UHGV virus genome: UHGV-0206901
Reading direction: 5' to 3' (one strand)
DNA length: 26,230 bases
Origin: a virus
Position 1 is the stretch's first letter; each line of letters starts with the position of its first letter. Shown here piece by piece: positions 822-20,214 of this stretch. The translations under genes and the position numbers were made by a program. The notes under the pieces are model-generated. The model did not search any database and was not told the origin of the DNA. It worked only from the letters and a program-made list of their open reading frames with translations.

Positions 822-1307
822 ATGACACTGACAGAGAACTTCATTCGTGATGCGATACAGCTTGACAGCGGTGCAGAGGTCATGTACGGCAGCAATCAGA
901 TCTATGACACCTATCCCTGCCGCTTTCCGACTGTTGAATTTCAGCTCATGGCAACGGATACCCTTGTGGAGGTTGCAGACCGCATCCGCATGGAGAAGGG
1001 CTACTTTCCGATGCATCCGTGGGACGGACGCACGGATGATGTGGACTGCGATGGTTGGTACGACTTTTATATCGGGATCAGCAAGCTCCCCGGCGACCAT
1101 CAGCAGTGCCAGCTTGACAGCAGTATCAGCTTTGTTGTTGTCAATTCCGATTCGGATGACAACGAGGATATGTACAACATCGACCTGACGGAATCCGAAA
1201 AGGAATATGTGTATGAGATACTGAACCGACAGTGCCGGAGGTATCACGGCAAGGACTGCGCCGAACTTCTGGCAGAGTCTGAAAAGGAGCTGATGGATAC
1301 AGCATGA
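822..1307 (+). CDS. Hypothetical protein
   Basis: ORF track 714-1307; internal ATG at 822 is preceded by GGAGGAGG (808-815) with a 6-nt spacer; stop overlaps the nrdD start (ATGA at 1304-1307); no recognisable motif. Confidence 0.5.
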   Translation: MTLTENFIRDAIQLDSGAEVMYGSNQIYDTYPCRFPTVEFQLMATDTLVEVADRIRMEKGYFPMHPWDGRTDDVDCDGWYDFYIGISKLPGDHQQCQLDSSISFVVVNSDSDDNEDMYNIDLTESEKEYVYEILNRQCRRYHGKDCAELLAESEKELMDTA

Positions 1308-3451
1308 GAATTATCAAGCGAAACGGCGCAGAGGTGCCGTATGACTGTGAAAAGATCAGAGCCGCAATTACTGCGGCAAACGATGAGATGGATTCCGGCG
1401 ACAGGATCACAGATACAGTAATCGGCTTTATCGTCGGCAGAGTCGAGCAGCGGTGTGAGACGCTTGCAAGACCTGTCCATGTCGAAGAAGTCCAGGACAT
1501 GGTTCTAGATGAGCTTGACAAAGCCGAGGCTTACAAACTTGCACGGCACTACAGCGAATACAGACTCCTGCATGAACAGCAGCGCAGGATGAATACCACG
1601 GACGGAAAAATTCTCAGCTTGCTGGAACGCAATAACGAGGAGGCAAAGCAGGAGAATGCGAACAAGAACCCGATCATCAACAGCACGCTCCGGGACTATA
1701 TGGCAGGCGAAGTCAGCAAGGACATCTGCCGTCGCTTCCTGTTCCCAGCAGATGTGATCGCCGCCCACGATGACGGCATCATCCATGTACACGATCTGGA
1801 CTACATCGCAGAGCCGATGCACAACTGCTGTCTGGTCAATCTTGAAGATATGCTCCAGAACGGTACGGTCGTATCCGGTACAATGATCGAAAAGCCGCAC
1901 AGCTTTTCCACTGCGTGTAACATTGCTACACAGATCATTGCGCAGGTCGCGTCGAACCAGTACGGCGGGCAGACAATTTCTCTGGCACATCTTGCGACTT
2001 TTGTGGATGTCAGCAGACAAAAGATCAGAGCCGAGGTATCTGAGGATGTGAACTGCGACTGCGGCGCAAAGCTGTCGGCGGAAGAACTCGACCATATCGT
2101 TGAGAAGCGTGTGCGCCGGGAAGTCAAGCGTGGTGTACAGACCATCCAGTACCAGATAAACACACTGCTCACCACCAACGGGCAGACTCCGTTTGTGACG
2201 GTGTTTATGTATTTGGACGAGGTGTCGGAGGGACAGACCAGAGATGACCTTGCGCTCATTATCGAGGAAACGCTGCTTCAGCGTATCGAGGGTGTGAAAA
2301 ATGAGAAGGGCGTCTGGATCACCCCGGCATTCCCGAAGCTTATCTATGTTCTCGATAAGGGTAATATCACCGAGGACAGCCGCTATTGGTATCTTACGAA
2401 GCTTGCCGCAAAATGCACGGCAAAGCGTATGGTTCCTGACTATATCTCCGCCAAGATCATGAAGAAGCTGAAGGGTGATGTGTATGCCTGCATGGGCTGC
2501 CGCAGTTTCCTCACGCCTTCGGACGATCACAAGTATTACGGCAGATTCAATCAGGGTGTTGTCACGCTGAATCTGGTGGATGTGGCGTGTTCTTCCAACG
2601 GTGATATGGACAAATTCTGGCAGCTTCTGAATGAACGCTGCGACCTATGCTTCAAGGCTCTGATGTGCAGGCATGAGCGGCTGAAAGGTACGCCGTCTGA
2701 TGTTGCGCCGATCCTCTGGCAGAACGGTGCATTGGCACGACTCGGCAAGGGTGAAACAATCGACAAGCTGCTGTATAACAATTACAGCACCATTTCACTC
2801 GGCTATGCCGGCATCGCAGAAATGACCTACCGCATGACGGGCTGTTCGCATACGGAGCCGGACGGAAAAGTATTTGCACTTGCAGTGATGAAATTCCTGA
2901 ATGAGAAGTGTGCGGCATGGAGAGAGCAGACAGGGATTTCTTTCTCCCTGTACGGCACGCCGATGGAATCTGTGACCTACAAATTCTCTCAGTGCTTACA
3001 GCGCAGACACGGTATTATCCCTCATGTGACGGATAAAAACTACATCACAAATTCGTATCATGTTCACGTTACTGAGCCGATTGACGCATTCAGCAAGCTG
3101 ACATTCGAGTCCGAATTTCAGGAGCTTTCACCGGGCGGTGCGATCAGCTATGTGGAAGTGCCGAATATGCAGCACAATATTCCTGCGGTACTTGCACTGA
3201 TGCGGCATATCTACGAAACGATTTTGTACGCCGAACTGAACACCAAATCTGATTACTGTCAGGCTTGCGGCTATGACGGCGAAATACAGATCGTGGAGGA
3301 GGACGGCAAGCTGATCTGGGAATGCCCGAACTGCGGCAACCGCGATCAGCGGACACTGAATGTATGCCGCCGCACCTGCGGTTACCTCGGAACGCAGTTC
3401 TGGAATCAGGGGCGCACCGCTGAGATCAAAGACCGGGTGATGCACCTGTGA
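1304..3451 (+). CDS. nrdD: Anaerobic ribonucleoside-triphosphate reductase (class III RNR)
   Basis: 715 aa; N-terminal ATP-cone-like region (MRIIKRNGAEVPYDCEKIRAAI); C-terminal zinc ribbon CQACG...CPNCG; glycyl-radical motif RRTCGYLG close to the C-terminus; followed directly by the activase gene. Confidence 0.93.
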   Translation: MRIIKRNGAEVPYDCEKIRAAITAANDEMDSGDRITDTVIGFIVGRVEQRCETLARPVHVEEVQDMVLDELDKAEAYKLARHYSEYRLLHEQQRRMNTTDGKILSLLERNNEEAKQENANKNPIINSTLRDYMAGEVSKDICRRFLFPADVIAAHDDGIIHVHDLDYIAEPMHNCCLVNLEDMLQNGTVVSGTMIEKPHSFSTACNIATQIIAQVASNQYGGQTISLAHLATFVDVSRQKIRAEVSEDVNCDCGAKLSAEELDHIVEKRVRREVKRGVQTIQYQINTLLTTNGQTPFVTVFMYLDEVSEGQTRDDLALIIEETLLQRIEGVKNEKGVWITPAFPKLIYVLDKGNITEDSRYWYLTKLAAKCTAKRMVPDYISAKIMKKLKGDVYACMGCRSFLTPSDDHKYYGRFNQGVVTLNLVDVACSSNGDMDKFWQLLNERCDLCFKALMCRHERLKGTPSDVAPILWQNGALARLGKGETIDKLLYNNYSTISLGYAGIAEMTYRMTGCSHTEPDGKVFALAVMKFLNEKCAAWREQTGISFSLYGTPMESVTYKFSQCLQRRHGIIPHVTDKNYITNSYHVHVTEPIDAFSKLTFESEFQELSPGGAISYVEVPNMQHNIPAVLALMRHIYETILYAELNTKSDYCQACGYDGEIQIVEEDGKLIWECPNCGNRDQRTLNVCRRTCGYLGTQFWNQGRTAEIKDRVMHL

Positions 3452-3915: not shown

Positions 3916-4229
3916 GAGCCAGACTGAGACCGCCAGGAGATGCCGTTCGCTGCGATGCCTGCGGATGTGCATTTGTTCCGGAAACACTGACGCAGCGTGA
4001 GGGTGAGATCGAATACAGCTTCTTCCGCTGCGACTATTGCGGCAAGGCGTATCTCGTATCCGTTACGGATGCAGACCTCTGCAAGGATATCCGCAGATAC
4101 AGAACGCTTGCGGAAAAGCACAAGATCAAGCCCCTGAGTGAACAGTCGCTCCGCGAGATGGCTGCGCTGAAAGAGCAGAACTTAAAACGAGCCGCAAAGC
4201 TGCGGCAGTTGTACTATGTGGAGGGATGA
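3912..4229 (+). CDS. Zinc-ribbon protein, function unknown
   Basis: 105-aa ORF whose ATG overlaps the nrdG stop; two CxxC pairs (CDACGC, CDYCGK); basic C-terminal tail. Confidence 0.5.
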   Translation: MRARLRPPGDAVRCDACGCAFVPETLTQREGEIEYSFFRCDYCGKAYLVSVTDADLCKDIRRYRTLAEKHKIKPLSEQSLREMAALKEQNLKRAAKLRQLYYVEG

Positions 4230-4230
4230 G

Positions 4231-5514
4231 ATGAAGACAGCAGAACTTCGTGTGATCCCTGTCACGGAGCTGAAGCCTGCGGCATATAACCCGCGCAAAA
4301 AGCTGAAGCCCGGCGACAAGGAATACGAAAAGATCAAAAACAGCATCGAGGAATTCGGCTTTGCCGATCCGCTGGTAGTCAACGCCGACATGACCATCAT
4401 CGGCGGGCATCAGCGACTGACCGTAGCGATGGCGCTCGGATACACCGAGGTACCCTGTGCGGTGGTGGACATCGACAAGGTCAGAGAAAAGGCGCTGAAC
4501 ATTGCGCTCAACAAGATCACCGGCGCATGGGACGAGAGCCTTCTGGCTGAACTGTTGCAGGACATTCAGGACAGCGACTTCGACCTCGGAAAGACCGGCT
4601 TTGATCCGCCGGAGATCGAGCAGCTTTTCAATCAGGTACACAATAAAGACATCAAGGAAGATGACTTTGATATTGAAGAAGAGCTGAAACAGCCGACCTT
4701 CTCAAAACTCGGTGACCTGTGGATTCTGGGCAAGCACCGTATCGTCTGCGGTGACAGCACCAAGTCGGAAACCTACGAGCTGCTTATGAACGGTGAAAAA
4801 GCAAATCTCCTGCTGACCGATCCGCCGTACCTCGTAGCATACAGCAATACCTCCGGCAGCATCAAGAACGATGACCTTTCGGATAAGGAAGGCTATGAAT
4901 TCCTGAAAAGCGCATTTGCCTGTTTCAAAGAGAACCTTGCAGATGATTCTGCGGTGTATGTTTTCTACGCGACATCAAAATCGAGGGTGTTCTATGACGC
5001 TTTCGAGGATGCCGGATTCCGTGTTTCTTGCGGATTGGTCTGGCGCAAGGACAGGCTTGTGCTGTCGAGGACGGACTATCAGCAGAACTTCGAGCCTGTG
5101 ATCTACGGCTGGAAAAAGAACGGCAAGCACACATGGTACGGTGACCGTAAGCAGACCACCTGCTTTGACTTCGACCGTCCGAAAAGCTCCAAAGCCGAGG
5201 GTGAGGGACATCCGACTGCAAAGCCTGTACCGCTGATGGCATATCTCATCAAGCAGTCCACCATGACAAACGGCATTGTGCTGGACGGCTTCCACGGTTC
5301 CGGTTCTACCATGATCGCCTGTGAACAGCTCGACCGAAAATGCAGAGCTGTAGAATTGGATGAAAAGTTTGTGGACGTTCAAGTGAAGCGGTATATCAAA
5401 TTCCGCGAGGGCAAGTACGATGATGTGTATGTCATCCGTGACGGGCAGAAGCTTTCCTTCGATGAAGCGGTGGCAGCGATGCCGACAGCAGAGGGTGGTG
5501 ATACGAATGGGTGA
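4231..5514 (+). CDS. ParB-like nuclease domain fused to a DNA amino-methyltransferase (probably N6-adenine; beta-class motif order)
   Basis: ATG at 4231 preceded by GGAGGGA; N-terminal ParB/Srx-like region (ELKPAAYNPRK...IIGGHQRL); central LLLTDPPY (motif IV) precedes GFHGSGST (motif I), the beta-class order. Confidence 0.85.
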   Translation: MKTAELRVIPVTELKPAAYNPRKKLKPGDKEYEKIKNSIEEFGFADPLVVNADMTIIGGHQRLTVAMALGYTEVPCAVVDIDKVREKALNIALNKITGAWDESLLAELLQDIQDSDFDLGKTGFDPPEIEQLFNQVHNKDIKEDDFDIEEELKQPTFSKLGDLWILGKHRIVCGDSTKSETYELLMNGEKANLLLTDPPYLVAYSNTSGSIKNDDLSDKEGYEFLKSAFACFKENLADDSAVYVFYATSKSRVFYDAFEDAGFRVSCGLVWRKDRLVLSRTDYQQNFEPVIYGWKKNGKHTWYGDRKQTTCFDFDRPKSSKAEGEGHPTAKPVPLMAYLIKQSTMTNGIVLDGFHGSGSTMIACEQLDRKCRAVELDEKFVDVQVKRYIKFREGKYDDVYVIRDGQKLSFDEAVAAMPTAEGGDTNG

Positions 5515-7082: not shown

Positions 7083-7284
7083 GTGCGCCATTGTGACGGC
7101 ATACACAGATATCTCGATGCTGTGCGGCGATGATCTGAAATATCTGTATGACTATCTTTCCGGCTTTATCGGCAGACCGGTGTATACACACGAGATTCCT
7201 GCGGTGGCTGCGGCTTACAGAGACAAGATCAGAGAGGACTTCCTCGATCTGTGCAGGAACGCAAAGGAGGCGGATGATGGATAA
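7069..7284 (+). CDS. Small hypothetical protein
   Basis: 71-aa ORF starting at an internal ATG of ORF 6928-7284, overlapping the upstream methyltransferase stop; no recognisable motif; the 11-nt overlap with the next gene suggests translational coupling. Confidence 0.4.
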   Translation: MTKYECAIVTAYTDISMLCGDDLKYLYDYLSGFIGRPVYTHEIPAVAAAYRDKIREDFLDLCRNAKEADDG

Positions 7285-9487
7285 GAAACACTTGACCCTC
7301 GGCAGCCTGTTTGACGGCTCGGGGGGGTTTCCGCTTGGCGGCATCCTCGCAGGGATCGAGCCGAAGTGGAGCAGCGAAATTGAACCTTTTCCGGTGCTTG
7401 TCACGCACAAGCGACTGCCTGGGGTGAAGCACTACGGCGATGTATCCACACTGAACGGTGCAGAGCTTCCGCCGGTGGATATTATCACCTTCGGCAGCCC
7501 TTGTCAGGATCTGTCCATTGCTGGAAAGCGTGCCGGAATCCATGACGGTGATCGGTCGAACCTGTTCTTTCAGGCGATCCGTATCATCAAAGAAATGAGG
7601 GATGCAACAAATGGACAATACCCGCGATACTGCGTCTGGGAGAATGTCCCCGGCGCTTTCTCCTCCCACGGAGGAGACGATTTCAAAGCTGTCCTCGAAG
7701 CAGTTATCGGAATTAAAGAAGAAGGGATCGAGGTGCCTGCGCCTGAAAATCACAGATGGGCAAAATCAGACGTATATCTGGGAGACGGATGGAGCGTGGC
7801 TTACCGAGTTTTCGATGCTCAATACTGGGGTGTCCCCCAACGCAGAGCAAGAATCTACCTTGTCGCAGATTTTGCTGGCGGAAGTGCCGGAGAAATACTA
7901 TTTAAGTCCGAAGGCGTGTCTGGGTATACTCCGCAGGGCTTCCGTTCGTGGCAAGGAACTGCCGGAGGTGCTGAAGAAAGCACTGGAGCGACAGGCTGGC
8001 GGTCTGACGCTGGAGGTGGAACCCTCTGCGTAAACTGTCAGGGCACGGCAGGTGTCGGTATCACAGAAGATAAGGCACTGGCACTTGTCGCACAGGATCA
8101 CGGGAATCATCCAGCCGTTCTTGCCGCAGGTTTTTCCACAGAGCATAGTGCAAAAGCACGAAGCATCGGCTACGAAGAGGAAGTATCTCCTACACTGAGA
8201 GCTGGTGTTGTTCCGGCGGCAATGGAGCTTCAAAGCTATCCCGTTGAAAATCATCCTGCGGATTCGAGAGTCAGGGTGCGTGAGGACGGAAAGTGTCAGG
8301 GGCTTACAGGCAGAATGGGAACAGGCGGCGGAAACGTACCGCTTGTAGCAGAACCGATTACGCTAAAAATCCGCAGTGGTGGCGGAAATGGTGGTAAGGG
8401 CGCTATCTGGCAAACAGATAAATCCGCAACTCTTGCAACCAATAATGACCAGACGCTTTTTCAGCCGGAGGTCAAGGCTTTCGGTGTATGCAGCAAGCAC
8501 TCCAATGCGATGATGTCCGACAATCCGCACAGCGGATTCTATGAGGCGACCACAAGCAGAACGCTCGACCAAAGTGGTGGAAATTCTGTGACATCGAATC
8601 AGGGCGGCATCTGCGTGGTAGCACCTGCGCCTGAAACCTTCGATGTGCGTTTCACATCAGACGGTACAAAAAACGCTCGTGGGCATTGTTACCCGACAGA
8701 CATTTCCCGATGCCTTGATACGAGCGAGGCGAACCCGGACAGCAATCACGGAGGAGTTGCGGTGGTGGCTCTCGAACCGGGGGCGGCATCCCGTATCGGC
8801 GGTCATGTATACAGTGACGGCAAAAGCGGCACGCTCCGTGCAAATGCCGGAGACAATCAGCAGGCTGTTGTGGTAGCCGAGAAGGAGACCTATGCACTGC
8901 AAGGCTCGATGATCGGTCGCGCCGATCAGAACGGACCGCAGGGTGATGGTATCAATGAAGATGTGTGCTTTACGCTGAACACAACAGACAGGCATGCTGT
9001 CGCAGCACCGGATGCCGATCACTACAGCACAAGCAAGAATTCTCACCACACAGTCGCCGCACATGAACAGGCAAACACGCTGGTCGCATCCGACTGGAAG
9101 GATCCTCCGCTTGTGAACGACCTTCCGAATGACGAGCCGGTATATATCGTTCGTCGTCTGACTCCGGTGGAGTGCGCCAGATTGCAGGGATTCCCCGACT
9201 GGTGGTGTGCCGACCTTGCGATTCCCGATCCGACCGATGAGGAGATCACCTTCTGGATGGAAGTATGGGAAACTTGGAGACAGATCACAAATCCCAAGGG
9301 AAAGCCGAAAACGGAAAAGCAGATCCGCAAATGGTTGGCTGATCCGTACACGGACAGTGCCGAGTACAAGTTATGGGGCAACGGTGTCTCAGAGCCCGTT
9401 GTGTTCTTCGTGCTATCCGGCATTGCCTGGGCGGCACAGAATTCTGAAACTAATGCAGCAAATTGTGAACATTCTGATACTATGTAA
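7274..9487 (+). CDS. DNA cytosine-5 methyltransferase with an exceptionally long variable (target-recognition) region, possibly multispecific
   Basis: ATG at 7274 preceded by AAGGAGG (7264-7270); motif I LFDGSGG, motif IV GSPCQDLS, motif VI ENVPG, motif VIII QRRARIYLV, C-terminal RRLTPVECARLQGFPDWW; about 480 aa lie between motifs VIII and IX. Confidence 0.9.
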   Translation: MMDKKHLTLGSLFDGSGGFPLGGILAGIEPKWSSEIEPFPVLVTHKRLPGVKHYGDVSTLNGAELPPVDIITFGSPCQDLSIAGKRAGIHDGDRSNLFFQAIRIIKEMRDATNGQYPRYCVWENVPGAFSSHGGDDFKAVLEAVIGIKEEGIEVPAPENHRWAKSDVYLGDGWSVAYRVFDAQYWGVPQRRARIYLVADFAGGSAGEILFKSEGVSGYTPQGFRSWQGTAGGAEESTGATGWRSDAGGGTLCVNCQGTAGVGITEDKALALVAQDHGNHPAVLAAGFSTEHSAKARSIGYEEEVSPTLRAGVVPAAMELQSYPVENHPADSRVRVREDGKCQGLTGRMGTGGGNVPLVAEPITLKIRSGGGNGGKGAIWQTDKSATLATNNDQTLFQPEVKAFGVCSKHSNAMMSDNPHSGFYEATTSRTLDQSGGNSVTSNQGGICVVAPAPETFDVRFTSDGTKNARGHCYPTDISRCLDTSEANPDSNHGGVAVVALEPGAASRIGGHVYSDGKSGTLRANAGDNQQAVVVAEKETYALQGSMIGRADQNGPQGDGINEDVCFTLNTTDRHAVAAPDADHYSTSKNSHHTVAAHEQANTLVASDWKDPPLVNDLPNDEPVYIVRRLTPVECARLQGFPDWWCADLAIPDPTDEEITFWMEVWETWRQITNPKGKPKTEKQIRKWLADPYTDSAEYKLWGNGVSEPVVFFVLSGIAWAAQNSETNAANCEHSDTM

Positions 9488-11200: not shown

Positions 11201-12145
11201 ATGACTGAGAAAACCGCACAGCAGATCAACAGAATGAAGGAGCAGACCATCGGGGTTGAGATCGAGATGAACAACATCACCCGCAAGGCTGCCGCAAAGC
11301 TCGCCGCTGACTTCTTCGGCACGAACCGCTACGAGGACACGGCCTGCCGCAACGGCTACTACACTTGGAGCGCATGGGATGCACAGGGGCGCGAGTGGAA
11401 ATTCCAGCGGGACGTGAGCATCGCAGGCTCCGACAGCGAAAAGTGCGAACTGGTCACACCGATCCTGCACTACGCAGACATCGAAACCCTGCAGGAGCTT
11501 GTGAGAAAGCTCAGGAAGGCAGGAGCGCGCAGTGATTACACGCGGGGATGTGGAGTCCACTGCCATATTGGAGCCCAGGGACACACACCGCAGACCTTGA
11601 GAAACCTCGCAAACCTGATGGCAAGCCACGAAACCCTGATCGCCGAGGCAATCAGAGTAGACCAGAGCAGAATGCGCCGCTACTGCAGAACAGTTGACCC
11701 GAGATTCCTTGAACAGCTCAACCGCAAAAAGCCCACCACGATGGCACAGCTTGCGGACATCTGGTACGGCGCACAGGGCTGCGAATACGGCAGAACCCAC
11801 CACTACAACGACAGCCGCTATCACATGCTCAACCTCCACGCTACCTTCACCAAAGGCACGGTCGAGTTCAGACTTTTCCAGTTCGCACCGCCCTCAAACG
11901 GCAAGCAGAACGGGCTCCACGCAGGCAAGCTCAAGAGCTACATTCAGCTCTGCCTCGCAATGAGCCAGATGGCAAAGGACCTGCGGAGCGCCAGCCCCAA
12001 GGAGCAGCAGAAGGAAAACAAAAAGTTCGCCATGCGGACTTGGCTGATGAGAATGGGATTCATCGGGGATGAATTCGCAACGGCGAGAGAGGTCCTCACT
12101 GAGAACCTTACGGGCGACAACAGCTTCCGCTTCGGCAGATCTTAA
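11201..12145 (+). CDS. Putative amidoligase (glutamine-synthetase-like / gamma-glutamyl-cysteine-ligase-like ATP-dependent amide ligase family)
   Basis: 314 aa; N-terminal IGVEIEMNN strand with paired glutamates and a central GCGVHCHIG motif, both typical of Amidoligase_2-type enzymes as I recall them; own promoter cassette; followed by an AIG2-like gene. Confidence 0.65.
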   Translation: MTEKTAQQINRMKEQTIGVEIEMNNITRKAAAKLAADFFGTNRYEDTACRNGYYTWSAWDAQGREWKFQRDVSIAGSDSEKCELVTPILHYADIETLQELVRKLRKAGARSDYTRGCGVHCHIGAQGHTPQTLRNLANLMASHETLIAEAIRVDQSRMRRYCRTVDPRFLEQLNRKKPTTMAQLADIWYGAQGCEYGRTHHYNDSRYHMLNLHATFTKGTVEFRLFQFAPPSNGKQNGLHAGKLKSYIQLCLAMSQMAKDLRSASPKEQQKENKKFAMRTWLMRMGFIGDEFATAREVLTENLTGDNSFRFGRS

Positions 12146-14022: not shown

Positions 14023-14077
14023 GTGACACAACGGAAGGGCAGAACGCCTACCGAAAAACGAAACGGAGGATAACACC

Positions 14078-14847: not shown

Positions 14848-15276
14848 TAGGTTCAGCCCTGCGGGGCTGACTTGCCCCACGTTGTCCTTTGTGAGGTTTT
14901 CCTGCGATAAGCTTGCCCCTGCGGAAAGCCGCCTCACACGGCGCGTTTGTGTGCTGACCGCAGTCATCGCAAACCTGTCGGCCACGGGAACATGGACGGA
15001 GCGAGAAGTGATGGAAACGCTGCTGGATGTCTTTGAACCGAAGGAGCTTGAACAGCTCGGCTACGGCGACTGCGTGAACGCATACTTGGAAGAGTACGGC
15101 GGATGGCGACGACACACGCACCACGTTGCCTCGTGTGGGGCGGTGCCGGGGAGATGCGTACAGCTTGCCCCTGCGAAAAGCCGCCTTACACGGCGCGTTC
15201 TGGCGCGTCCTATACGATGTACAATTCCGCCCGACTTCCCGCCTCATGTTTGTCACATTTATTTTGCAGACAGACG

Positions 15277-15706: not shown

Positions 15707-15809
15707 CCGCAACAGGGGCAGGGCTTCGGCTCTGCTCCGCACCATTCCCCGGTCATAATGTACACAACTGAACGCCGAAAAATTCAGAAATGATCGTGAT
15801 TACTCACGC

Positions 15810-15838
15810 TTGATAATGTAGGCAAGAAGAGTTATACT
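15810..15838 (+). promoter_or_regulatory. Sigma-A-type promoter cassette 7 (TTGATA, 17 bp, TATACT)
   Basis: Leader GTGTACAACGGAAGGGCGGAAAGCCCAGCCGAAAACGAAAATGCGGAGG; ATG at 15896. Confidence 0.6.
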
Positions 15839-15895
15839 GTGTACAACGGAAGGGCGGAAAGCCCAGCCGAAAACGAAAATGCGGAGGTACACACC

Positions 15896-16403: not shown

Positions 16404-16604
16404 TCGGCAAAACGGAGCAGTCCTTCTGCGGAGGGGCTGTTCCACGCCACGTTCGCTTGTGTGGGGGGCTTACGGCTTTCTGCGGATATCTTGCCCCGCG
16501 ATAAAAGCCGCCCACACGGCGCATTTGTGTGCCTCCTGCGGCAAGGCATAATATGTACAACAACCGACAAAAAATCGCCTTGCACATTCTGGTAGTTTAG
16601 CCGC

Positions 16605-16633
16605 TTGATATATCTGCCGAAAAGAGTTATAGT
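16605..16633 (+). promoter_or_regulatory. Sigma-A-type promoter cassette 8 (TTGATA, 17 bp, TATAGT)
   Basis: Leader GTGTACAACGGAACGGGAAACCGAGCCGAAAACTACGAAAGAACGAGG; ATG at 16690. Confidence 0.55.
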
Positions 16634-16689
16634 GTGTACAACGGAACGGGAAACCGAGCCGAAAACTACGAAAGAACGAGGTAAACACT

Positions 16690-17074: not shown

Positions 17075-17548
17075 ATGGCTCAGAGAGGCAGAAAACCGAC
17101 GCCGACAGCAATCAAGGAACTGGAAGGCAATCCGGGCAAGCGTCCGCTGAATGATGCAGAGCCGAAGCCGGAACGCAAGGCACCGCCCTGTCCGAAATGG
17201 CTGGAGCCCGAAGCAAAAAAGGAATGGCGCAGGCTGTCAAAGCAACTGGAGCAGATTGGTGTGCTGACCGAGGTCGATCAGGCGGCATTCGCATCCTACT
17301 GTCAGGCATACGCACGATGGAAAGAAGCCGAGGAATTCATGACACAGCACGGCACGATCGTGAAAACAAAATCAGGTTACTGGCAGCAGGTGCCGCAGGT
17401 ATCCATTGCACAGACCTATCTGAAGATCATGAATAAGATCGCAGAACAGTTCGGTCTGACTCCTGCCGCAAGAAGCAGGATCACCGCAGGTGCGGATATG
17501 AAGGACGCTGCCGTTGACGATATGGATGAACTTCTCGGAGGTGACTGA
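17075..17548 (+). CDS. terS: Terminase small subunit
   Basis: AAGGAG 8 nt upstream of the ATG at 17075; 157 aa; basic N-terminus (RGRKPTPTAIKELEGNPGKRP) and overall pattern typical of P27-family small terminases; sits directly upstream of, and overlaps, the large terminase. Confidence 0.8.
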   Translation: MAQRGRKPTPTAIKELEGNPGKRPLNDAEPKPERKAPPCPKWLEPEAKKEWRRLSKQLEQIGVLTEVDQAAFASYCQAYARWKEAEEFMTQHGTIVKTKSGYWQQVPQVSIAQTYLKIMNKIAEQFGLTPAARSRITAGADMKDAAVDDMDELLGGD

Positions 17549-20214
17549 TGGCGAGAACGGCAAAGGCAAGAGAAAGACCTGCCAACTATCCGAAACTGAA
17601 GGATTATAAACCGACACGCTTTATGCTGCCGGAATCGCACTACGATGCGGCAAAGGCTGACCGAGCTGTGCGGTTCATCGAGAATCTCTGCCATACCAAA
17701 GGACGCTGGGCAGGAAAGCCGTTCTGGTTGCTGCCGTGGCAGGAACAGATCATCCGGGATATTTTCGGCATCGTCAAAGAGGATGATACCCGCCAATTCC
17801 GCACAGCTTATGTCGAAATTCCAAAGAAAAATGGGAAGCAGCTTGCACTGGATACACCGATCCCGACTCCGCAGGGATTCACCAATATGGGAGATCTGAA
17901 GGTCGGAGATACAGTATTCGATGAAAACGGCATTCCGTGCCATGTGGTTGCGAAAAGTCCTGTGGATGATACAGAGCAAGCCTACAAGCTGACCTTCAAG
18001 GACGGCAGCTCGATCATCGCCGGAGAACGGCATCTGTGGAACTGTCAGTATATTTACGGCAAACGCAAGGATGTTCTCTGGACGACCGGCGAGATCTATC
18101 GCAGGACTTCAGAATACAGACGGCGATTCTCAGACCGACCGCAGTCAAAGCGGGATTCTCTGATCCGAATTCCGGTGTGCGGTGTCCTTCAGACAGAAGC
18201 GGCAGTTTTACCGATTGATCCGTATCTGTACGGCTACTGGCTCGGAAACGGTAATGTGACCATGCCGGAGATCACTGTTCGGACGGAGGATGTCGAGGAT
18301 ATCATCTCGAATATTCCGTATAAGGTACACAACCGTTATCCGCAGAAATGCGGCGGCAGTGAGATCATAAAGTACAATGAACTGAAAGCAGTACTACTTG
18401 ACAGCTTCCGTGAAAAGAAGATCCGACCAGAATATCTGAGGGCATCCGCAGAGCAGAGATGGGCATTACTGCAAGGGCTTATGGATTCGGACGGCTGTAT
18501 CGGTGAACGCAAAGGGCAAAGTGTGTATGTCACAACGCTGCGAGAGCTGGCGCTTTCCGTCAGAGAACTGCTGTGGTCGCTCGGTATCAAAAATGCAGTG
18601 AAATGTGAGCCTTCTACTCGGCATGGGTGGCCGACTGGAGAGATTTTGTATATCGTCCGGTTTACTACCTTTGACGATCAGCCGACATCAAGACTGAAAC
18701 GAAAGTACACACGCACACGGGCGCGGGTGAAAGAAACTCGCTCCTGTTTTCATTATTTACTGGACATTCAGCCTGTGGATCATCCTGTGAAAATGCAGTG
18801 TATTCAGGTGGATAGTCCTAGCCACCAATATCTTGCTGGAACATCGTTTGTGCCTACGCACAACAGTGAGCTTGCAGCCGCAATTGCGCTGTATCTGCTC
18901 TACGCTGACAACGAGCCATCCGCCGAGGTCTACGGTGCTGCCGCCGACCGACAGCAGGCATCCATTGTATTCGATGTCGCCAAAAGAATGGTTGAGATGA
19001 CACTGGCACTTCTGAAACGCTCAAAAATCATGGCGGCGACAAAGCGTCTGGTGAATTACAGCAATGTCGGTTTCTATCAGGTGCTTTCGGCGGAGGTCGG
19101 AACAAAACACGGTCTGAATGTATCTGGGCTTGTGCTTGACGAGCTTCATGTTCAGCCGAACCGTAATCTTGTGGACGTTCTCACAAAGGGATCCGGTGAT
19201 GCCCGTACTCAGCCGCTGTACTTCCTGATCACCACAGCCGGCACTGACCGAAACAGCATCTGCTATGAATACCACACCAAGGCAAAAGACATCCTCGAAG
19301 GGCGGCGTATCGATCCGTCATTCTATCCTGTCATTTACGGTCTGGATGACGGCGACGACTGGAATTCAGAGGAATCGTGGTACAAGGCAAATCCGTCTCT
19401 CGAATACACAATTACCATAGACCGTGTGCGGGATGCCCATCGTGAAGCACTGACAAATCCTGCGGAAGAAAATGTATTCCGTCAGCTTCGTCTTGATCAG
19501 TGGGTTGGCAGTGCGGTTGCATGGGTGCCGGAGCATATCTACGACAAAGGCAATATACCAATCAATCCGGAGTCTCTGTACGGACGCGAGTGCTATGCAG
19601 GACTGGACCTTTCCAGTACATCTGATATCACGGCATTTGTTCTGGTATTCCCACCGTTGTATGAGGGTGATAAATACATCGTTGTACCCCACTTCTGGCT
19701 GCCGAGGGAAACACTTGACCTGCGTGTACGGCGAGACCATGTTCCCTACGATGTATGGGAGCGCATGGGGCTATTTCATATCACCGAGGGCAATGTGGTG
19801 GACTACAACTTCGTGCGGAAAACGATCAATGAGCTGCACACGATGTATAACATCAAGGAAATTGCAGCAGACCGCTGGAATGCCACACAGCTTATCACCG
19901 ACCTGCAGGGTGACGGTTTTACCGTTGTCCCGATGGGCATGGGCTTCAAGGATATGTCGCCACCGATGAAGGAGCTTTACAAGCTGCTGCTTGAGGGCAA
20001 GTTTATCCATGGCGGAAATCCTGTCCTGCGATGGATGGCAGGAAATGTGGTCGCTGAAATTGACGCGGCGGAAAATATCAAGCCGTCCAAGAAAAAGTCT
20101 ACAGAGAAAATTGACGGCATCGTAGCATGGATCATGGCACTTGACCGCTGCATCCGCCACGAAATGCAGGGCAGTGTCTATGACGAACCCGGCCACGATC
20201 TTGTGGTCATCTGA
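17548..20214 (+). CDS. terL: Terminase large subunit, interrupted by an in-frame intein at the Walker A (P-loop) site
   Basis: 888-aa ORF; N-extein ends ...EIPKKNGK and C-extein begins SELAAAIALYLLYADNEPSAEVYGAAADRQQ, which together rebuild a canonical PKKNGKS P-loop; C-terminal nuclease-domain-like region; followed by the portal gene. Confidence 0.92.
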   Translation: MARTAKARERPANYPKLKDYKPTRFMLPESHYDAAKADRAVRFIENLCHTKGRWAGKPFWLLPWQEQIIRDIFGIVKEDDTRQFRTAYVEIPKKNGKQLALDTPIPTPQGFTNMGDLKVGDTVFDENGIPCHVVAKSPVDDTEQAYKLTFKDGSSIIAGERHLWNCQYIYGKRKDVLWTTGEIYRRTSEYRRRFSDRPQSKRDSLIRIPVCGVLQTEAAVLPIDPYLYGYWLGNGNVTMPEITVRTEDVEDIISNIPYKVHNRYPQKCGGSEIIKYNELKAVLLDSFREKKIRPEYLRASAEQRWALLQGLMDSDGCIGERKGQSVYVTTLRELALSVRELLWSLGIKNAVKCEPSTRHGWPTGEILYIVRFTTFDDQPTSRLKRKYTRTRARVKETRSCFHYLLDIQPVDHPVKMQCIQVDSPSHQYLAGTSFVPTHNSELAAAIALYLLYADNEPSAEVYGAAADRQQASIVFDVAKRMVEMTLALLKRSKIMAATKRLVNYSNVGFYQVLSAEVGTKHGLNVSGLVLDELHVQPNRNLVDVLTKGSGDARTQPLYFLITTAGTDRNSICYEYHTKAKDILEGRRIDPSFYPVIYGLDDGDDWNSEESWYKANPSLEYTITIDRVRDAHREALTNPAEENVFRQLRLDQWVGSAVAWVPEHIYDKGNIPINPESLYGRECYAGLDLSSTSDITAFVLVFPPLYEGDKYIVVPHFWLPRETLDLRVRRDHVPYDVWERMGLFHITEGNVVDYNFVRKTINELHTMYNIKEIAADRWNATQLITDLQGDGFTVVPMGMGFKDMSPPMKELYKLLLEGKFIHGGNPVLRWMAGNVVAEIDAAENIKPSKKKSTEKIDGIVAWIMALDRCIRHEMQGSVYDEPGHDLVVI
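17839..18864 (+). mobile_element. Intein (~342 aa) with an embedded double-motif LAGLIDADG homing endonuclease, inside terL
   Basis: Block A-like LALDTPIPT...GDLKVGDTVF; block B GERHLW; two LAGLIDADG motifs (LYGYWLGNGNV and LLQGLMDSDGCI); terminal ...FVPTHN followed by Ser +1. Confidence 0.8.

Follow-up and report, generated by a model that had tools for sequence, protein, structure and literature searches.

Introduction

Textbook accounts of the LAGLIDADG homing endonucleases treat both catalytic acidic residues as indispensable, and the absence of either is routinely read as decay. In two-motif, intein-borne members, cleavage requires Mg2+ and acts on a long, asymmetric site, leaving 3' overhangs of 4 nucleotides. 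Among the known systems closest to the one described here are PI-SceI, from the yeast VMA1 intein, with the other intein-borne LAGLIDADG enzymes PI-PfuI, PI-PkoII and TliVMA. In such enzymes each LAGLIDADG helix gives one carboxylate to paired, closely spaced active centres that share a metal ion (PMC3017599, PMC3384342). Here we report on the virus genome UHGV-0206901, a stretch of 26,230 nucleotides (nt) referred to below as the window, in which terL, the gene for the terminase large subunit, is interrupted by an intein with a LAGLIDADG endonuclease domain whose first catalytic position is an asparagine, Asn137, and whose second, Asp218, is unchanged. The comparisons imply that this Asn/Asp state is a conserved, selected variant rather than a decaying enzyme, and on balance they incline us to the view that the endonuclease is functional, with a remodelled first centre and strand-asymmetric cleavage.

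PI-SceI differs from the UHGV-0206901 intein in having Asp218 where the latter has Asn137 and in being of class 1, with Cys1, rather than of class 3; the two are ~18% identical. The mycobacteriophage TerL inteins BAKA TerL1-b and Bethlehem TerL1-c lie in the terminase P-loop region, include class-3 members and have LAGLIDADG blocks C, D, E and H, as does the intein described here; both splice and cut the intein-less allele of a partner phage, with linear DNA being cut in two (PMC5050341). The class-3 DnaB inteins (M. smegmatis DnaB1, 6bs8; MchDnaB1, 6rix and 6riy) are hosted by a helicase and were crystallised as mini-inteins lacking an endonuclease.

In monomeric LAGLIDADG enzymes one strand is naturally cut faster than the other (PMC3017599), and altering one of the two centres can yield nickases (PMC3017599, PMC3384342). 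Engineered one-site variants (mMsoI D22N, mCreI D20N, I-AniI K227M and I-SceI K122I/K223I) resemble the UHGV-0206901 enzyme in that one centre is altered and the other intact; they are, however, laboratory mutants, whereas the asymmetry described here is natural, ancient and selected, with both active-site lysines retained. For the phage-borne enzymes I-HmuI and I-BasI a single-strand nick is enough for homing (PMC3017599). Their likeness to the UHGV-0206901 enzyme, should the latter nick, is in mechanism only: they are HNH (beta-beta-alpha-metal) enzymes located in group I introns, whereas it is of the LAGLIDADG family and intein-borne.

The endonuclease domain and its active centres

Relatives of the intein were collected by a scan of IMG/VR, which gave 80 loci with inteins 66-97% identical to that of UHGV-0206901 (61 distinct proteins, referred to as the viral inteins), and by a prophage scan of one genome per bacterial species, which gave 54 further loci, 50 of them covering position 137. 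A profile of the endonuclease domain matches PI-SceI at E 8e-12, and the residue columns were assigned from that alignment (Table 1). An earlier note on this DNA, made from the letters and their reading frames, had described motif 1 as having an Asn where the catalytic acidic residue is expected and motif 2 as keeping the Asp; the PI-SceI columns of Asp218 and Asp326, respectively, bear this out. The structure prediction that it had proposed as a check agrees, in that two long helices of an AlphaFold model (110 homologues; predicted local distance difference test, pLDDT, 96.5) stop exactly at Asn137 and Asp218. An acidic residue is expected to end each LAGLIDADG helix; here only the helix of motif 2 ends in one. 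When searched alone, the first half of the domain had no Pfam match, only the second half being detected; this was considered as a sign of decay and rejected after the PI-SceI profile alignment and the fold match of the domain, which is LAGLIDADG.

The basic residues of blocks D and H are in place. Lys193 lies in the Lys301 column of PI-SceI and is invariant; Arg288-Lys289, which belongs to block H with Leu286, is invariant in 61/61 viral and 49/49 prophage sequences. By pseudo-symmetry Lys289 would be the equivalent of PI-SceI Lys403, the sequence alignment having stopped short of Lys403. Overall, the domain appears to be a structural member of the LAGLIDADG family with a non-canonical first centre. 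It is unlike the non-catalytic LAGLIDADG proteins, such as the maturases and WhiA, in keeping Asp218, Lys193 and Lys289; in WhiA both acidic residues and the flanking basic residues are lost (PMC3384342).

Within motif 1 itself we found no acidic residue that could stand in for the missing Asp, position 139 being N, C, S, T or V among the 61 viral inteins, and the column of PI-SceI Asp229 is occupied by Arg148 in the UHGV-0206901 intein. The Gly after the catalytic position is invariant, so that every Asn member has an Asn-Gly pair.

Conservation and selection

All 80 IMG/VR inteins are uninterrupted and in frame at the same site, K-[KQ]-[NQ]-G-K / S-E-L-A-A (a slash marks the junction, here and below). 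Asn137 is present in 61/61 viral inteins, encoded by AAC in 40 and AAT in 21, and in all 50 covering prophage loci, down to 47-55% identity (47% being the lowest); Asp218 is present in 61/61 viral inteins (GAC 37, GAT 24) and in 49/50 prophage sequences. A reversion from Asn to Asp takes a single transition, and none was seen among the 61 viral inteins. The prophage hosts are Bacillota and a few other phyla, and include Oscillospiraceae, Lachnospiraceae, Faecalicatena, Acidaminococcus, Megasphaera, Selenomonas and Fonticella. Cultured hosts among them are Faecalicatena contorta JCM 6483 (L180), Megasphaera elsdenii (L187), Acidaminococcus intestini DSM 21505 (L188) and Fonticella tunisiensis DSM 24455 (L203). 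Over the same genome pairs, the Nei-Gojobori ratio of nonsynonymous to synonymous divergence (dN/dS) is 0.078 in the endonuclease domain; the splicing parts have 0.042 and the C-extein 0.033. The domain is thus under purifying selection.

These results bear on plain decay, i.e. a recent inactivating mutation in an endonuclease on its way to a mini-intein, which the earlier note had allowed for in raising a degenerating enzyme. It is true that the catalytic position has been hit, that Pfam recognises only the second half of the domain and that dN/dS is slightly higher in the first half (0.09) than in the second (0.05). We nevertheless find decay scarcely credible, given that the Asn is common to >100 diverged inteins (61 viral and 50 prophage) with synonymous turnover of its codon, that dN/dS for the domain is 0.08, that 80/80 viral frames are intact, and that genuine decay products look quite different. 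The latter form a minority among the prophages, with a stop in L205, frameshifts in L215 and L218, and a wrecked copy in L216. Three further loci (L219, L220 and L221) have in-frame mini-inteins of 157-159 residues at the same site, in which a short linker replaces the endonuclease domain; the splicing domain of the L220 mini-intein is nearly identical to that of the UHGV-0206901 intein. A Propionispora locus (L213, 3001..3849) has a 283-residue form that has lost most of the first endonuclease subdomain and keeps GNG and DKRIP. The relaxed selection, frameshifts, stops and deletion that mark a degenerate or mini-intein stage are absent from the 80 viral loci. Since loss of function shows itself as breakage or excision of the domain, the intact Asn/Asp form is being maintained.

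A word-indexed protein search returned only matches (P0001-P0120) of <=403 residues, compared with ~890 residues for the intein precursors. We do not read this as frequent truncation of the intein or as decay, the list being enriched for fragments and truncated gene calls (e.g. P0003, which stops within the intein and comes from a contig of 138 kb); DNA loci were used in its place, and the exhaustive search described below reached proteins of 3,664 residues.

Recurrence of the asparagine and the residue at position 192

An exhaustive HMMER search with the endonuclease domain gave 7,986 relatives, and the motif columns were counted in the best 150 representatives of these. The motif 1 column has Asp 166, Asn 21, Glu 2, Gly 2 and Ser 1 (n=192), and the motif 2 column has Asp 203, Asn 0, Ala 2, Val 1, Thr 1 and Glu 1 (n=208), such that Asn occurs in motif 1 (21/192) but not in motif 2 (0/208; p 1e-7). 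The hosts of the Asn-state domains include terminases of the PF03354, T4 and GpA types, RecT and an AAA+ ATPase. In a crude tree several Asn-state domains have Asp-state nearest neighbours, so that the change from Asp to Asn probably arose more than once, the number of events being uncertain. Random loss would strike both motifs and leave varied residues; the recurrence of Asn, in motif 1 only, thus points to a functional state that is tolerated or favoured.

The covariation comparison of 20 Asn-state with 154 Asp-state domains located the strongest co-varying positions near the active site at the flanks of the block-D lysine. Block D of the Asp-state domains is mostly N-K-H, with Asn192 in 72/131 and His194 in 104/132. 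In the viral clade, position 192 is acidic in 61/61 members (Asp 32, Glu 29), as it is in 45/48 prophage loci, and His194 is replaced in the UHGV-0206901 clade; His194 is present in 79% of Asp-state and 28% of Asn-state domains overall. Position 192 is acidic in 12/18 Asn-state and 30/131 Asp-state representatives (Fisher p 3e-4, for sequences that are phylogenetically non-independent). There are exceptions among the Asn-state domains, with N-N-K-H in P0167 and P0201 and a residue other than Asp or Glu (Y, M, R or A) at position 192 in four more. The pattern at positions 137 and 192 looks like a carboxylate-carboxamide swap, which we regard as only a lead, and Asp/Glu192, beside Lys193, is a candidate for the nearby acidic residue that the earlier note had named as able to refute an inactivated site.

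Should residue 192 have such a role, the enzyme could be a full double-strand cutter, with Asp/Glu192 supplying the missing carboxylate and Asn137 plus Asp/Glu192 replacing Asp137 plus Asn192. The near-constant acidity of position 192 in the clade, its enrichment in Asn-state domains and the covariation of His194 would all fit this arrangement, as would the invariance of both lysines and a homing signature (see below) of the kind expected from efficient cleavage. The covariation is, however, not strict, 23% of Asp-state domains are already acidic at position 192, and the counts come from sequences related by descent; in our view full double-strand cutting by this route is unlikely.

A megablast of terL against phage sequences in GenBank gave no DNA-level match, only protein-level relatives with <=36% identity being available. 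We found no description of a natural Asn variant in the literature, which is not proof of its absence. What is apparently undescribed in the literature that we found is a conserved and recurrent Asn, specific to motif 1, that co-varies with block D and occurs alongside signs of active homing. Selection has fixed the one-sided change from Asp to Asn throughout a large clade of inteins from phages of the gut and rumen.

Mobility of the intein

The 80 closest TerL alleles were picked by their C-exteins (86-96% amino acid identity), and 78 were scorable. Half of these (39/78) are intein-plus and the other 39/78 have precise empty sites, KKNGK/SELAAA. In a neighbour-joining tree of the C-exteins, from which the first 150 nt were left out, the intein states are interspersed, with at least 11 state changes. 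Synonymous divergence (dS) for the same pairs is 0.43-0.55 in the intein, about half of the 0.93 in the C-extein, implying a more recent common ancestor for the inteins than for the genes that host them; this fits a spread of inteins among terL genes that had already diverged.

The presence/absence polymorphism is tied to the codons at the junction. Among 79 related terL alleles (L082-L161) the states of the Asn codon (AAT or AAC) and the Ser codon (AGY or TCN) almost perfectly predict the presence of the intein. Asn is AAT (-9..-7; codon 17830..17832) wherever the upstream flank of an intein-plus allele is readable, and all 40 intein-plus alleles have Ser as AGY (codon 18865..18867), which is TCN in most intein-less alleles. 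The combination of AAT and AGY is found in every readable intein-plus allele and in 1/39 intein-less alleles (Fisher p 8e-22, for alleles that are phylogenetically related). The sole intein-less allele with AAT and AGT is L147, the remainder having AAC and/or TCN. Association with the presence of the intein, given as r2, reaches 0.58 at -7 and 0.47 at +1 and +2, and drops to the gene-wide background of ~0.05 within 15 nt. Extended co-conversion tracts were considered and rejected, the association being gone within ~15 nt, and the signal in the flanks was read as target-site specificity.

Because the changes at the junction are synonymous, the constraint must act on DNA, and because AGY and TCN serine codons are not interconvertible by single synonymous steps, recombination must be what moves the dimorphism. 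On the simplest reading, bases -7, +1 and +2 belong to the target of the endonuclease, with cleavable alleles having been converted and the surviving empty sites being resistant. The intein is apparently still mobile, and this endonuclease may well be the driver of its spread.

The evidence on mobility also bears on the proposal of the earlier note that the domain might be retained mainly for structural reasons. An elaborated form of this proposal is that the endonuclease is dead and that its fold persists as a DNA-binding domain, either because the intein needs it to fold and splice or because it binds terL DNA in some regulatory way; the patchy distribution would then have arisen by ordinary phage recombination or through a related, active endonuclease acting in trans. 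In favour of this, I-CreI and I-MsoI are inactivated by an Asp-to-Asn change at the motif position, the identities of inteins and exteins broadly rise and fall together, such that much of the inheritance is vertical, and purifying selection alone is no proof of catalysis. A dead domain would, however, have no need for Asn specifically, yet the Asn is invariant and recurrent and other substitutions are rare; nor would it explain the conservation of the lysines and of the acidic residue 192. The mini-inteins L219-L221 reveal that an intein at the same site can stay in frame without its endonuclease domain, the confinement of the intein association to three synonymous junction positions is not predicted by recombination alone, and no free-standing endonuclease gene adjoins terL in the window. 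We therefore consider a dead domain improbable, and a purely structural role is hard to reconcile with the invariant active-site lysines together with the population signature of ongoing, site-specific homing.

A free-standing relative occurs in sister phages. The closest Asp-state relative, P0012 (~50% identical), is a 346-residue open reading frame (ORF) between terS and terL (L162, 4001..7110; also L163, L164 and L165) that starts 4 codons before the first residue of the intein and ends ...THDD, with the terminal Asn replaced, and has no exteins. In these phages a group I intron without an ORF interrupts terL at the identical P-loop position, exon 1 ending in ...IEIPKKN. P0012 looks like an intein-derived endonuclease that has turned free-standing and is paired with an intron interrupting its target, as in 'collaborative homing'; if so, intein and intron share one homing site in sister phages.

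Mode of cleavage

On the reading that we favour, the first centre would be remodelled rather than lost, and would comprise Asn137, at the foot of the first LAGLIDADG helix, with Asp/Glu192 and Lys193, while the second would keep Asp218, selection holding Lys193, Lys289 and the acidic residue at 192. The enzyme would recognise and break the intein-less Walker-A coding sequence of terL, at about ...AAGAAAAATGGRAAR/AGYGAGCTT..., and the intein would be copied in during repair, the template being a co-infecting or resident phage that contains it. With a carboxamide in place of one of the metal-binding carboxylates, the strands would be cut unequally: there may be a nick only, or a rapid first cut may precede a slow second one. 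A nick could suffice to start homing in replicating phage DNA. Impaired cleavage of one strand, as in the nickase that the earlier note had raised, is a fair expectation from experiments on other enzymes. LAGLIDADG lysine mutants are efficient nickases (PMC3017599), and single-chain I-MsoI with one D22N change nicks without cutting both strands (PMC2655683), such that the Asp-to-Asn precedents lean towards nicking. A selective rationale is plausible, in that an attenuated or nicking enzyme may pose a smaller risk to the DNA that the phage is itself replicating, the intein endonuclease being made one-for-one with an abundant late protein.

Several points weigh against a functional, strand-asymmetric enzyme. 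We found no cleavage assay of any Asn/Asp member in the literature. Gimble and Stephens in 1995 reportedly used an Asp-to-Asn form of PI-SceI as a catalytically dead control. The same change at the motif position of I-CreI has served as a dead control, and single-chain I-CreI with one D20N change has no activity at all (PMC2655683). The BAKA and Bethlehem TerL inteins, the only phage relatives with cleavage assays and ~33-36% identical to that of UHGV-0206901, are both Asp/Asp (GLWLGDG and GYWLGDG, respectively). That both lysines are retained speaks rather for two active centres and gives a pure nickase no advantage over a double-strand cutter. Part of the purifying selection on the domain could come from the folding that TerL splicing requires, and the homing signature could stem from general recombination or from a trans-acting endonuclease.

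The invariant Asn-Gly pair suggests a further explanation, i.e. that the intein is a pro-enzyme in which Asn137-Gly138 slowly deamidates to Asp or isoAsp after splicing, acting as a timer that arms the enzyme with delay. No dipeptide deamidates spontaneously more readily than Asn-Gly. Only Asn can be converted to Asp, which would explain why the replacement is by Asn only, and the C terminus of the intein already uses Asn-succinimide chemistry, as in intein C-terminal cleavage generally. The half-time is, however, long compared with a lytic cycle, being about a day even in free peptides, as Robinson and Robinson are said to have found, and the main product, isoAsp, would distort the end of the helix. 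We know of no precedent for a deamidation-activated nuclease and think this explanation very improbable.

With respect to the preferred strand-asymmetric enzyme, a more far-reaching proposal, which we advance only tentatively, is that Asn/Asp LAGLIDADG proteins are natural and widespread strand-specific nicking meganucleases, with several origins from Asp/Asp ancestors in phage inteins (of terminases, RecT and AAA+ proteins), and that they home from a nick. If nicking is true, these would be the first natural LAGLIDADG nickases and may provide scaffolds for nick-induced gene conversion, and intein homing in phages would be able to run on nicks. If both strands are cut, they would represent an alternative way of building a LAGLIDADG centre. 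The coexistence of the one-sided change, and of its co-varying block-D neighbours, with clear signs of ongoing homing is a warning that homing endonucleases should not be scored as dead from the motif alone.

Intein architecture and splicing

Both ends of the terL ORF match terminase families in Pfam and its middle matches LAGLIDADG_3 (Table 1). Its neighbours, i.e. terS (Terminase_4) and genes for a portal protein, a ClpP-like protease and an HK97-type capsid protein, make up a standard head-packaging module. Excision of residues 98-439 fuses ...PKKNGK to SELAAA..., regaining the Walker-A GKS. Given this and the location of the gene in the head-packaging module, the insert is a 342-residue intein, lodged in the P-loop of the large subunit of a phage terminase.

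Class-3 inteins are defined by a triplet of Trp (block B:12), Cys (block F:4) and Thr (block G:5) (PMC5050341). The UHGV-0206901 intein has these in GERHLW67, MQC321IQ and PT340-H341-N342, the last of which supplies the C-terminal His-Asn and is followed by Ser as +1 nucleophile; at position 1, where class-3 inteins have no Cys, Ser or Thr, it has Gln and its relatives Gln or Glu. Cys321, Thr340, His341 and Asn342 are kept in 50/50 prophage loci. The best sequence matches of the intein in the PDB are the class-3 DnaB inteins 6bs8 and 6rix (E 6e-20), and this homology suggests that splicing proceeds via a block-F thioester branch. Every component is of a known kind, namely a class-3 intein, a phage terminase P-loop site and a PI-SceI-like LAGLIDADG domain. 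The +1 Ser doubles as the P-loop residue of the TerL Walker-A GKS and as the splicing nucleophile; being so shared, it would leave TerL without ATP binding before splicing.

Table 1. Coordinates of the terL intein, its target site and related features. Positions are those of the window unless a locus is named.
Feature	Position	Strand	Remarks
terL precursor ORF, 888 residues, intein-interrupted terminase large subunit	17548..20214	+	Pfam TerL_ATPase 4.8e-19, TerL_nuclease 1.9e-47
N-extein, 97 residues, ending in Walker-A ...PKKNGK	17548..17838	+	Junction identical in 80/80 related viral loci
Upstream half of presumed homing site, AAGAAAAATGGGAAG	17824..17838	+	Third base of Asn codon AAT is -7 from junction
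Intein, 342 residues (QLALDTPIP...FVPTHN), class-3 signature	17839..18864	+	Gln1, Trp67, Cys321, Thr340-His341-Asn342, kept in relatives
LAGLIDADG homing-endonuclease domain, intein residues 100-310	18136..18768	+	
LAGLIDADG motif 1 (block C), LYGYWLGNGNV	18226..18258	+	Asn137 codon AAC at 18247-18249 replaces catalytic Asp; aligned to PI-SceI Asp218
Block D, FREKKI	18406..18423	+	Glu192 18412-18414; Lys193 18415-18417, aligned to PI-SceI Lys301
LAGLIDADG motif 2 (block E), LLQGLMDSDGCI	18466..18501	+	Catalytic Asp218 codon GAC at 18490-18492; aligned to PI-SceI Asp326
Block H, L-x-R-K	18694..18705	+	Leu286, Arg288, Lys289 (18703-18705), presumed pseudo-symmetric partner of Lys193
C-extein, 449 residues plus stop	18865..20214	+	First residue is +1 Ser of GK/S
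Downstream half of presumed homing site, AGTGAGCTTGCAGCC	18865..18879	+	Ser codon AGT at +1..+3
Empty (intein-less) terL site			...GAAATTCCAAAGAAAAATGGGAAG/AGTGAGCTTGCAGCGGCAATT...
Mini-inteins	L219 2804..3280; L220 901..1371; L221 3001..3471		
Group I intron	L162 5324..5707		Rfam RF00028, 86 bits, E 5e-22
Direct repeat families	14903..14947, 15155..15199, 16481..16525; 15807..15854 / 16602..16649; 14028..14070 / 15843..15885		

Other features of the window

The region of short ORFs upstream of terS contains direct repeats of 43-48 nt that are 67-89% identical. They look like repeated intergenic regulatory elements, and cause shared peptide segments in spurious long ORFs on both strands. Two stretches of a 779-residue ORF (7148..9487), apart from each other, match the Pfam C-5 DNA methylase family. 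At roughly double the length typical of that family, the ORF may include either an insertion or a fusion to another domain. Further genes of the phage specify an anaerobic ribonucleotide reductase (NrdD with ATP-cone), a ParB-N-fused N6/N4 DNA methylase and an Amidoligase_2 protein (1304..3451, 4216..5514, 11201..12145).

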